This document shows positions 50,239-54,743 of a stretch of 64,000 bases of DNA, piece by piece. This stretch comes from Candidatus Bathyarchaeota archaeon (GTDB lineage: Archaea; Thermoproteota; Bathyarchaeia; 40CM-2-53-6), in assembly GCA_963833125.1 (NCBI GenBank), contig CAWHWX010000016.1, forward strand, positions 384,001 through 448,000, given 5' to 3'. The position numbers and the translations under genes are program-made. Every line of letters starts with the position of its first letter. Position 1 is the stretch's first letter. Under the pieces are notes generated by a model, which had not been told where the DNA came from, ran no database searches, and worked only from the letters and a program-made list of their open reading frames with translations.

Positions 50239-52068
50239 ATGATCTCCGAGAGTCAGACCGCATGGCTGGTCGGCGCGTATCACAAAGCAGACGGAGTCGA
50301 ACTCAGACTATTCACCTCACCCGACTTGAAGCCAATCGAATGGGTTGACAGAGACTTTCAACCCTACTACCTCACCAGGCATCAGCAGGGTGAGATGGTC
50401 AAGAAGATAGATCTCTTTACCGGAAATGAAATGGAACTAGAGAAGGTAACCCTCAGAGGAAAACCCGCAAAGGACATCAAGGGCTGGGAGGTGGACGTAG
50501 ACCCTGTCATGAGCTACGCGTACGATAAGGGGCTTCGATTCGGTGTTCTCCACCGCCTCACCAGCAATGGTTGGGTTCCGGAACCGTCACTAGACGAGGA
50601 GGCGAGTTCCCGATTTGAAGCATTATTCGGAGCGATTCGGCGAAGGGATCCACTCAAGTACGCATCTCTGAAGGAACTGTACACATACATCAGCCAACCC
50701 GTACCAAGAATTCCACAGCAAGACCCCCACCCAGCTGAAGTAGATTCGGACGAAGACTACCTCAACGCCTTCCTACTCAGCCGCATCGCGAACCTGCCGC
50801 TAAACCGAACCTACCGTAACTATTCCGTCTCAGACTGGATCCGCTCAATGCTCAACACGTACTACCGCTCCCATAACATACTCATCCCCAACCCTGAAGA
50901 ACTCAAACTCGGAGACACGAGAAAGCAGGTAACAGGCGCCCTAGCTATCGGGCCGGAGCCGGGTACTTACTTCAACATGCATGTCCTCGACTTCGAATCC
51001 CTCTACCCAGGGTGCATAGACGTCTTCAACCTCTCATATGAGACCATGCAATGCCCCCATCCAGAATGTCAAAGCAACCATGTTCCCGGCCAACCACAGT
51101 TGCACGTTTGTACGAAACGACGTGGAATTTACTCCGCTCTCGTAGGCGCTATCCGTGATTTGCGCCTACAGATCTACAAACCAGAGACCAAGAAAGCCGG
51201 CGAAGCTGATGGCAATGCGTTGGCCGCATCCAGACTTTTGAAACTATTTCTAGTCTCCAGCTACGGCGTGACTATCAGGATTCATGGCTTAGCCAGCCCA
51301 CTCCTCGGTGAGGCGATCACCGCCTATGGTAGGCATGTGCTCCAGTCAACTTGGGATTTGGCGAAGATGATGGATCTCAGGCCGAAGTATGGTGACACCG
51401 ACTCCGTCTTCCTAGACAACCCAACCGTGGAGAAGACGGGGAAACTCATTCAACAAGTCAGTAGTGAGTTTAGGCTTCAGTTGGCTTATGATCGCGTCTA
51501 TTCCGTTTGTGTTCTCAGCACCATCAAAGCCTACTTCGGCATCCTACCCAACGGCGAACCAGAAATCAAAGGCTTAGCCATCGCCAAATCCAACTCACCC
51601 CGATTCTTCCAACAAACCTTCCAACAATGCCTAACTCAACTAGCCAAAGGGCGCCGCTCACCTAACGACTTCGAAACCGTCAAACAGCAGCTCCCCCACT
51701 TAGTTGCTGAAGCGATCAATAGGCTTCATAGCAGATCCGTGTCTCTGGCCGACTTAGAGTATCGGGTTGAGCTTAGGGAGGAGCCAGCGGAGAAGTTACG
51801 ATCGAAGAGACTTGCGCAACCCTACCAGGCGGCATGGCTGCTGACAAGGAAAACGCCCCGAGCGAGGGAGACGATTGGGTTTGTGAAGGTGCTTCCGTTC
51901 AGATTACAGGGAAGACAGTTCACCGTCAAACCTACCTCACAAGCAAACCCGAAAGAGATCGACGTGGACGACTACGCCCTCAGCCTCTACGCCTCACTCT
52001 CGCAAGCCTTCGACCCCATGAACATTAAACTCGCACCGAATCCAACCAGCCTCTCAGATTTCGTTTGA
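50239..52068 (+). CDS. Family B DNA polymerase, PolB1-like, lacking the 3'-5' exonuclease domain
   Basis: Motif A VLDFESLYP, motif B variant KLFLVSSYG, motif C YGDTDSVF, KAYFG, IKGL; only 609 aa; C-terminal PIP-like TSLSDFV. Confidence 0.88.
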   Translation: MISESQTAWLVGAYHKADGVELRLFTSPDLKPIEWVDRDFQPYYLTRHQQGEMVKKIDLFTGNEMELEKVTLRGKPAKDIKGWEVDVDPVMSYAYDKGLRFGVLHRLTSNGWVPEPSLDEEASSRFEALFGAIRRRDPLKYASLKELYTYISQPVPRIPQQDPHPAEVDSDEDYLNAFLLSRIANLPLNRTYRNYSVSDWIRSMLNTYYRSHNILIPNPEELKLGDTRKQVTGALAIGPEPGTYFNMHVLDFESLYPGCIDVFNLSYETMQCPHPECQSNHVPGQPQLHVCTKRRGIYSALVGAIRDLRLQIYKPETKKAGEADGNALAASRLLKLFLVSSYGVTIRIHGLASPLLGEAITAYGRHVLQSTWDLAKMMDLRPKYGDTDSVFLDNPTVEKTGKLIQQVSSEFRLQLAYDRVYSVCVLSTIKAYFGILPNGEPEIKGLAIAKSNSPRFFQQTFQQCLTQLAKGRRSPNDFETVKQQLPHLVAEAINRLHSRSVSLADLEYRVELREEPAEKLRSKRLAQPYQAAWLLTRKTPRARETIGFVKVLPFRLQGRQFTVKPTSQANPKEIDVDDYALSLYASLSQAFDPMNIKLAPNPTSLSDFV

Positions 52069-53834: not shown

Positions 53835-53992
53835 ATGAACGGAGATTCAAAGCGAAGCTTCGCTGTAGCCCTTGCTTCATTCGCGATAGGCGCCGTAGTC
53901 GCCGGGGTACTCGGAAACCCGAAGACACGACAGCGCATCGCGGTCTGAGCAAGAAGCTGGCTAAGAGAGCTAGGGCAGCTGACCTAGCGTAA
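53835..53992 (+). CDS. Small single-TM protein (YtxH-like); probable frameshift near 53940
   Basis: Strong GAGGAGG RBS; SFAIGAVVAGVLGNPKTRQR; downstream hairpin ggagcgg/ccgctcc. Confidence 0.45.
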
Positions 53993-54140
53993 ACAACCCA
54001 CGGGAGCGGCAATCGAACCGCTCCTTTCCTCTCATTCTAAATTCGAATCTGATCCGGCCTCTCTGTTTTCCGTCCCGACTTGATGAAGCTTAGAGCCTTA
54101 GGAAGGCTTAATTCTCAAGTCCGAATTCTCCATTGCAATT

Positions 54141-54206
54141 AGGGCGCGTGAGTGGGGCCTCCCACCCGATTGCGCCAAACAAACCCCGGAGTAGGGAGGT
54201 AAATGG
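54141..54206 (+). ncRNA. Candidate riboswitch-like 5' leader of queT
   Basis: P1 GGCGC/GCGCC, inner GUGGG/CCCAC, A-rich linker, GGGG/CCCC pseudoknot option, CCUCCC complementary to SD GGGAGG. Confidence 0.5.
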
Positions 54207-54743
54207 ATGAAAGCTAAGAGTTCAATCAATATCGCATTGACCGCAGTATTCGCCGCACTTTATTCTCTAGGCGTAGTATTTCTTGCCCCGATCAGTTTTC
54301 AAATCTTCCAAGTTAGAGTAGCAGATGCCCTGCTGCCTCTCGCTATGCTATTTGGTTGGCCTGCCGTTCTAGGACTATCGCTAGGTGCTTTCGTGGCAAA
54401 CATATTCGGCGGTCTTGGGCCGGTCGATATGATCGGAGGTTCCGTAGCGAATTTCATAGCGACATTCGTTGCCTGGCGATTGGTAGCCAGTAGGGGAAGG
54501 CGTTGGGCGTTGGTTGGGGTTGGGGCGGAGATTGTTATCGTCACGCTTGTGGTTGGGTCCTACTTGAGCTACTTGCTCGCTATGCCGATAGAAATTAGCT
54601 GGTTAGGGGTCTTCCTTGGAAGCGTAATCGCGATTGGAGTGCTCGGATCGATACTGTTCTTTGCACTCTCAACCGAAAGAATTGCAGCCCTGTTGAGGTC
54701 ATACGGTCTAGGAATCTACACGCAGCGGCCCGAGAAGAAGTAG
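54207..54743 (+). CDS. queT: QueT-family transporter (ECF S-component-like)
   Basis: AVFAALY, PISFQIFQVRVADAL, GLSLGAFVANIFG, GPVDMIGG. Confidence 0.85.
   Translation: MKAKSSINIALTAVFAALYSLGVVFLAPISFQIFQVRVADALLPLAMLFGWPAVLGLSLGAFVANIFGGLGPVDMIGGSVANFIATFVAWRLVASRGRRWALVGVGAEIVIVTLVVGSYLSYLLAMPIEISWLGVFLGSVIAIGVLGSILFFALSTERIAALLRSYGLGIYTQRPEKK

Follow-up and report, generated by a model that had tools for sequence, protein, structure and literature searches.

A conserved leader of archaeal queT genes as a candidate riboswitch for an archaeosine precursor

The queT leader and its distribution

In the window, the 64,000-nt stretch of contig CAWHWX010000016.1 from a Candidatus Bathyarchaeota archaeon that was analyzed here, a queT gene follows a short leader for which a translational switch had been suggested in a preliminary description. 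Is this leader a riboswitch, which structures would it exchange, and what would it sense? The element comprises positions 54143–54199 (~57 nt) directly 5′ of queT, and the strings named for it were all found at their coordinates (GGCGCG at 54143–54148, UGCGCC at 54171–54176, GUGGG at 54152–54156, CCCAC at 54161–54165, GGGG at 54154–54157, AAACAAA at 54177–54183, CCCC at 54184–54187, CCUCCC at 54158–54163, and GGGAGG at 54194–54199). The downstream gene had likewise been named correctly, as the ORF at 54207–54743 matches the QueT family of Pfam. Its in-frame ATG is at 54207; another ATG, out of frame, lies at 54203. The features of the locus are as follows.

54103–54115 (+): promoter-like region in which the TATA-like box CTTAATT(C) comes after a stretch rich in A; putative promoter role
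54137–54140 (+): predicted transcription start a few nt 5′ of P1, from the position of the box and the usual archaeal spacing
54143–54148 (+): 5′ strand of stem P1, GGCGCG, partner of 54171–54176
54149–54152 (+): junction UGAG, with G, A, and G invariant in alignment A3; putative pocket or docking role
54152–54165 (+): hairpin P2, GUGGG/CCCAC with loop GCCU, the state with a free Shine–Dalgarno (SD) sequence; closing pairs covary, inner pairs overlap the anti-SD strand
54158–54165 (+): anti-SD strand CCUCCC plus AC, partners 54191–54192 and 54194–54199
54166–54168 (+): CCG, invariant (129 of 129 sequences), putative 5′ strand of a small pseudoknot helix; RNAalifold partner CGG at 54187–54189
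54169–54170 (+): loop L2, here AU (A3 columns 32–33), mostly one U, followed by the U of the G-U pair that closes P1
54171–54176 (+): 3′ strand of P1, UGCGCC, pairing with 54143–54148
54177–54186 (+): loop L3, in which a C run follows an A-rich linker whose AAA is invariant; putative role in the pocket or in the groove of P1
54187–54189 (+): invariant CGG, putative 3′ strand of the small pseudoknot helix (alignment and RNAalifold), absent in the rare variants L178, L179, and L193
54190–54193 (+): spacer AGUA, whose GU is able to pair with AC at 54164–54165
54194–54199 (+): SD sequence GGGAGG, 7 nt 5′ of the start codon, covarying with the anti-SD strand
54207–54743 (+): queT coding sequence, 178 aa (PF06177, E 8.5e-27, 94.6 bits against a cut-off of 33.7)

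A 257-nt intergenic region precedes queT and, before that, there is a small ORF (~37 aa, 53836–53949) with a GGAGG of its own. The G+C-rich, terminator-like hairpin that follows this ORF (54002–54030) and the adjoining T-rich run match Sulfolobus sRNA133 at chance level, and the hairpin is probably the terminator of the upstream gene. Farther upstream, the sole match of a 609-aa ORF (50239–52068) is to the domain of family-B DNA polymerases (PF00136, profile positions 12–451 of 453), and no exonuclease part was reported for it in the Pfam scan.

The TATA-like CTTAATT noted earlier lies at 54107–54113, 30–36 nt before P1, and fits an AT-rich box that recurs in 133 unique upstream regions of the element. 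There, AT content is 0.74–0.88 at −34 to −28 from the first P1 base compared to ~0.55 elsewhere, and A is enriched at −40 to −36. In archaea, the centre of the TATA box is usually found ~26 nt from the transcription start. Combined with the box spacing, this distance would place the start ~3–6 nt before P1, and the element would then fill the whole 5′ UTR. The fixed distance of the promoter-like box argues against a leaderless mRNA. One metatranscriptome run contained 5% of the sampled words; its single contig equals 53950–54004, then diverges, and ends 5′ of the leader.

A protein search matched QueT-like proteins in 43 of 61 related genomes, from which 30 loci were taken. All 30 carry the same ~57-nt element just 5′ of the start codon; sequence farther upstream diverges, and QueT protein identity is 40–72%. 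Conservation is thus strong in the leader and lost in its flanks, as would be expected of the functional leader postulated in the preliminary description. A degenerate motif pattern was then scanned over one genome per prokaryotic species and retrieved at least 119 stretches, which together with the 30 loci of the protein search gave 149 pooled loci. A complete element with at least five of the six P1 pairs is present in 141 of them, corresponding to 129 distinct cores. The other eight are L023, a real but divergent copy (16.7 bits with the covariance model), and seven records titled as bacteria (L065, L075, L081, L086, L094, L096, and L109), which lack both P1 and queT and were discarded as chance matches; their number fits the rough expectation for the pattern.

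Judged by record titles, carriers among the matches listed are mostly Candidatus Bathyarchaeota or Bathyarchaeia, with some Nitrososphaerota, Thaumarchaeota, and Nitrososphaerales and, among the same matches, single carriers titled Methanomethylicota (L039) and Promethearchaeati (L083). Two further records, L087 and L093, are titled Methylomirabilota and Acidiferrales, both bacteria, yet carry the archaeal leader and queT, and the core of L087 is that of L009; they are probably misbinned contigs. With covariance model R1, 28 of the 151 genomes sampled from the phylum were found to carry the element, and the genes after the 29 matches examined were queT (26), a queE-like gene (1), and two without assignment. 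This taxonomic range is a lower bound, as the pattern left out variants such as the AAAACCCGG form of family f23. A search for divergent copies within the order of genome G208 returned mostly noise (16–20 bits), L193 being the sole copy counted as real because queT lies directly downstream of it. Across classes whose QueT proteins share only 30–50% identity, ~20 nucleotides of the element are invariant.

Alternative helices of the leader

Folded as a single sequence, the leader reaches a minimum free energy (MFE) of −24.6 kcal/mol with a z-score of −0.32, and 70 of 200 shuffled sequences fold as well. Single-sequence folding was rejected as evidence on this ground and, because the leader alone folds no better than shuffled sequence, the case rests on comparison across genomes. 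All structure counts refer to A3, the alignment of the 129 distinct cores.

Stem P1 is the most regular part of this alignment, with 99.1% of cells paired and changes on both sides in three of its six pairs. At its outer pair, GC, GU, AU, CG, and UA all occur; at the fifth, 96 sequences have G-C and 33 have C-G, a swap that amounts to only ~2 events on the QueT tree, and the G-U closing pair is replaced by A-U once. Of the GUGGG/CCCAC hairpin proposed to form within the P1 loop (P2), the two closing pairs are compensatory, the U-A pair being G-C in three sequences and C-G in one, but the inner G:C pairs are never swapped and are kept in length only: the G run is shorter where the C run and the SD are shorter (mutual information, columns 15–24). 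P2 has at least four contiguous base pairs in 115 of the 129 sequences. For P1 and P2 together, 98.5% of cells are paired compared to 93.3% in shuffles, double changes are found in 48 cells compared to 10.6, and none of 500 shuffles was as good.

The pairing of CCUCCC with the SD sequence GGGAGG (columns 21–26 with 63–68) was likewise found to covary; slid controls dropped to ~50% paired, and structures with this helix were not equalled by any of 500 shuffles. From the first to the last of these columns, the pair types are CG/GU/AU, CG, UA/CG, CG/UA, CG, and CG/UA, and a contiguous helix of at least 6 bp between loop and SD exists in 120 of the 129 sequences. Two additional pairs extend it: pair 27–61 is A-U in 112 sequences, C-G in 3, G-U in 2, and other in 12, and pair 28–60 is C-G in 106, U-A in 3, U-G in 3, and other in 17. 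If the invariant CCG:CGG is included, the anti-SD:SD and AC:GU pairs become an 11-bp helix with two one-base bulges, here called S2. P1 plus full S2 have 96.9% of cells paired (88.6% in shuffles) and 206 double-change cells (73 in shuffles), and again none of 500 shuffles was as good; in slid controls, 42–57% were paired. A blind mutual-information scan of all column pairs ranked 7–35, 24–65, 23–66, 21–68, and 3–39 among the top seven; the remaining two echo the same helix in adjacent columns, leaving no unexplained pair.

Since relatedness could inflate such counts, kinship was taken into account by a QueT tree of 114 rows and by independent contrasts. On this tree, at least 17 changes of the anti-SD type were counted. 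In 10 supported independent pairs, the SD type differed in the same direction in 8–9, in the opposite direction in none, and not at all in 1–2 (median p 0.004). Covariation of both P1 and the anti-SD:SD helix is borne out, phylogenetically independent contrasts included. Some complementarity between loop and SD would exist in any case, given that each is similar to the tail of 16S rRNA or to the complement of that tail. The advantage of a loop for its own SD is real but modest: helix length is 6.53 bp for own pairs and 6.14 ± 0.06 bp for permuted ones, with a maximum of 6.28 in 200 permutations. Non-standard SDs are, however, matched by their own loops, as in GCUCCC:GGGAGC (L137 and L152, the latter being the queE leader of the window's genome), CCUUCC:GGAAGG (L029), UUUCC:GGAAG (L174 and L175), and GCUCCG:CGGAGC (L193). 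These cases argue that the loop pairs with the SD and does not merely share a likeness to the rRNA tail. Insertion variants, e.g., L077 and L129, have extended loop:SD pairings of 7–8 bp.

P2 and the long helix between loop and tail cannot coexist, because both use the strand 54158–54165. The two mutually exclusive states of the preliminary description therefore stand, but one pairing changes: P2 alternates with the 11-bp loop-to-tail helix, which keeps CCUCCC:GGGAGG but has no GGGG:CCCC. For GGGG:CCCC, 48 and 56 of the 129 sequences have gaps at two of the G columns, 37 of 129 leave the fourth pair open, and compensatory changes are almost absent, CCCC being invariant. GGGG:CCCC should be replaced by the invariant CCG:CGG contact plus AC:GU. 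Nearest-neighbour energies are −18.5 kcal/mol for P1 plus P2, −15.6 for S2 alone, and −9.0 for P1 alone with no pseudoknot penalty included; on these values, which leave that penalty out, the two folds are close in energy.

RNAalifold predicted both the anti-SD:SD helix and CCG:CGG unaided. CCG and CGG do not vary, and their contact is put forward as a putative one; the proposed pocket nucleotides are invariant too. The linker from P1 to CGG is mostly 9–11 nt long and unpaired; its AAA never changes, nor does most of the C run, the first C of which can be U or A. P1 and S2 would thus form an H-type pseudoknot with an A-rich third loop. A nested MFE structure in which the C run pairs with the SD (GG-A-GG) was not adopted, as the C run shows no variation and changes in the SD go uncompensated in it. 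In three variant leaders, L178 (1501–1559), L179 (1501–1561, minus strand), and L193 (1501–1563, minus strand), the C run leads into AAAA and the strand on the SD side comes next, with no CGG directly after the C run; these leaders retain P1, the covarying loop:SD helix, and a downstream queT. Either CCG:CGG is dispensable or these leaders form a sub-class.

Controlled genes and the proposed switch

The genes after the 141 complete leaders are queT (122 loci), a queE-like radical-SAM gene (3), queC (1), and a gene for an unnamed membrane protein (6); of the remaining nine loci, eight have a QueT match by tblastn. The best NCBIfam matches of the queE-like proteins are all QueE models, below their curated cut-offs, and queC was assigned by PF06508 (E 3.6e-35). 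The window's own genome has three leader copies, two before queT and one before queE–queC, and also encodes members of the TGT and QueD/PTPS families. Three distant QueT-like paralogues in this genome have no leader copy. The copy on contig 27 (L152), which is followed by a queE-like gene and then by queC, differs from the window copy in P1 and in its GCUCCC:GGGAGC pair, so that compensatory changes occur within a single genome. This gene set covers preQ0 synthesis and uptake, and the presence of the element before queT, queE-like genes, and queC points to a 7-deazaguanine as ligand.

Two of these loci have peculiarities of their own. The queE-like gene of L152 (1501–2216) spans two overlapping frames (1501–1875 and 1800–2216), with queC at 2392, which suggests a frameshift or an assembly error. 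On contig 11 (11005–11604), the second queT with a leader encodes a protein 97% identical to that of the window, with diverged flanks; this copy could be a recent duplication or stem from a second strain in the assembly, the contamination estimate of which is 6.99%.

The unnamed protein has 230–240 aa and is multi-pass (L040, 5324–6022 on the minus strand; also L064, L070, L071, L110, and L116). No Pfam or NCBIfam match was obtained for it, and BLASTP detected no significant similarity to QueT (E 0.046 over 21 residues). Its nearest ESM Atlas cluster is annotated as “ECF transporter S component family protein” (score 0.94), which we take as a lead only. The protein is a candidate for a new 7-deazaguanine transporter.

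Most queT genes start with ATG, GTG, or TTG. At some loci, a near-cognate codon is found at this position: ACG (L074, L089, and L092), CTG (L041, L056, L103, L129, and L135), ATA (L093, L108, and L114), or GTT (L143). As the N-terminus after this codon is conserved among them, the sequences suggest that these loci may use weak, non-canonical start codons on a riboswitch-controlled gene.

The leader is probably a riboswitch that acts in cis and belongs to a hitherto undescribed class, in which two folds would compete and a preQ0-like 7-deazaguanine would lock the one that buries the SD. Conservation, covariation, the spacing of the promoter-like box, the gene set, and the lack of an Rfam match (see below) support the preliminary proposal of a new candidate class that controls queT translation by hiding the SD. 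In fold A, which would consist of P1 and hairpin P2, the SD would be free. In fold B, CCUCCC-AC-CCG (54158–54168) would leave P2 and pair with CGG, GU, and GGGAGG (54187–54199), and P1 and S2 would form a pseudoknot of the H type with an L2 of 1–2 nt, an A-rich L3, and a buried SD. A free 7-deazaguanine, most likely preQ0, may bind at the junction of P1 and S2 in a pocket made of the invariant UGAG, CCG-U, and AAA-C-run-CGG nucleotides and lock fold B, which would shut off translation of queT and, at other copies, of queE or queC. We infer this OFF direction from the controlled genes: as they make or import preQ0, end-product repression is the simplest logic.

With gene content as the guide to the ligand, the leader most likely senses an archaeosine precursor. 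PreQ0, with which QueC ends the synthesis, serves archaeal tRNA-guanine transglycosylase as substrate, and archaea insert preQ0 itself into tRNA; to our knowledge, they make no queuosine. Archaeosine is made from preQ0 in archaea (PMC5372724, in excerpt). The same riboswitch might instead respond to preQ1, 7-carboxy-7-deazaguanine, archaeosine base, guanine or another purine, or to a different substrate of QueT. The ligand is deduced from the controlled genes only, the QueT substrate is predicted and not measured according to the excerpted text of PMC5372724, and a membrane protein without a name stands behind 6 of the 141 leaders. However, the steps of the queE-like and queC products immediately precede preQ0, and queT is linked to this pathway as well; with archaeosine derived from preQ0, end-product feedback fits preQ0 best. 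Another ligand is therefore unlikely.

If a preQ0 switch is assumed, its implications reach further, and we lean slightly towards the following comprehensive reading. The element would represent a fourth structural class of preQ riboswitches and the first class apparently confined to archaea. It would sense preQ0 rather than preQ1 and act by a strand exchange that the ligand drives and that buries the SD. It would be widespread in Bathyarchaeia, occur also in records of Nitrososphaerota and Methanomethylicota, and mark the ECF-S-like membrane protein as a new 7-deazaguanine transporter. Bacteria commonly use riboswitches. In archaea, known ones are scarce (PMC5473149, in excerpt). If this reading is true, archaea possess riboswitch classes of their own, TACK archaea offer a clear case of SD-based translational control, and a new RNA fold for 7-deazaguanine recognition joins the three bacterial classes. 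In genomes of uncultured lineages, the element would also flag genes for making or salvaging preQ0, the gene of the unnamed candidate transporter among them.

Comparison with known riboswitches

Three preQ1 families are available in Rfam 15, which we take to be RF00522 (PreQ1, i.e., preQ1-I), RF01054 (preQ1-II), and RF02680 (preQ1-III). None of them matched at E ≤ 10 in 501 or 77 nt around the leader, at E ≤ 1 in 15 diverse loci, or at the gathering score in the whole window. The preliminary inference of a new class, by eye outside the preQ1-I consensus, agrees with the covariance models. The matches that Rfam did return (S4-Flavobacteria, Sso133, HCV_5BSL1, and GHRLOS) are to unrelated families at chance level, and a weak match of the tmRNA model in L152 (327–417) lies away from the leader. 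No earlier description of the element was found in full-text searches of the main texts of open-access papers.

PreQ1-I is an H-type pseudoknot with an A-rich L3 along P1, a short second helix, and the SD in or next to the 3′ strand (PMC8752633, in excerpt). The element likewise has a P1, a second helix formed by the 3′ tail, an A-rich L3 right after P1, and the SD in the 3′ strand. It might accordingly be regarded as a very divergent, enlarged relative of preQ1-I that has the same fold and pocket and a hairpin inserted in L1. We consider this quite improbable, as neither the 77 nt around the leader nor the 15 diverse loci matched a preQ1 model. Moreover, the element is with ~57 nt about twice as long as preQ1-I, an aptamer called “unusually small” in the title of reference 28 of PMC5372724 (in excerpt), and its L1 contains a hairpin in competition with the pseudoknot. 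L2 differs as well: in preQ1-I, it contains the specificity cytidine that pairs with the ligand (PMC8752633, in excerpt), whereas in the 129 sequences it is U, AU, or UU, i.e., 1–2 nt without any C. A cytidine of the L3 C run could take the part of the ligand-specificity base in the element. The H-type arrangement proposed for the element is, in preQ1-I, the one in which a flat ligand fills the gap in the stack from one helix to the other (PMC8752633, in excerpt).

The scarcity of known archaeal riboswitches (PMC5473149, in excerpt) could also be taken to favour a leader that is bound by a protein, be it a pathway enzyme or a dedicated regulator acting as translational repressor, or by another RNA, with no small molecule involved directly. 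The invariant single-stranded nucleotides might equally well be protein contacts. Yet ~20 nucleotides are kept across classes in which QueT itself has diverged to 30–50% identity, no conserved neighbouring regulator gene was noticed, and a pseudoknot with an A-rich loop and a buried SD is typical of small riboswitches; such a binding site has only a slim chance of being the right explanation. That the leader is a constitutive structure which tunes translation or mRNA stability without switching is scarcely credible: SD sequestration alone can lower expression, and many of these queT genes appear to have weak start codons, but two mutually exclusive helices are both maintained, ~20 invariant nucleotides lie outside the helices, and the element is restricted to genes of one pathway (141 loci).

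The preferred reading, a riboswitch for preQ0, has its functional counterpart in preQ1-II, the COG4708 or queT motif of Lactobacillales, in which an extra hairpin is embedded in the loop between the pseudoknot strands. Like preQ1-II, the element precedes queT (122 of 141 loci) and has its SD inside a pseudoknot helix, and its ligand would block translation. Unlike preQ1-II, it occurs in archaea, its L3 is a single strand of 10 nt that is rich in A and C and has no hairpin embedded, and its conserved nucleotides are other ones. With preQ1-III, it shares the pathway and an SD:anti-SD helix, a separate one in preQ1-III (PMC8752633, in excerpt). There, this helix is distant and orthogonal, whereas in the element it would be continuous with the aptamer helix, and the preQ1-III model does not match.

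The leader has general features of riboswitches, namely a conserved structure in 5′ leaders with covarying helices, genes of one pathway downstream, and mutually exclusive structures. For archaea, the excerpted text of a 2017 survey lists only TPP and fluoride riboswitches as common, with occasional FMN, Mg2+-I, and guanidine-II representatives; it names no preQ1 class, and Thaumarchaeota have a single example of any class there (PMC5473149). Like the archaeal TPP and fluoride riboswitches, the element resides in archaeal mRNA leaders (PMC5473149, in excerpt). Unlike these two classes, which are shared with bacteria, it is exclusively archaeal among the matches listed, apart from the two probably misbinned contigs with bacterial titles.
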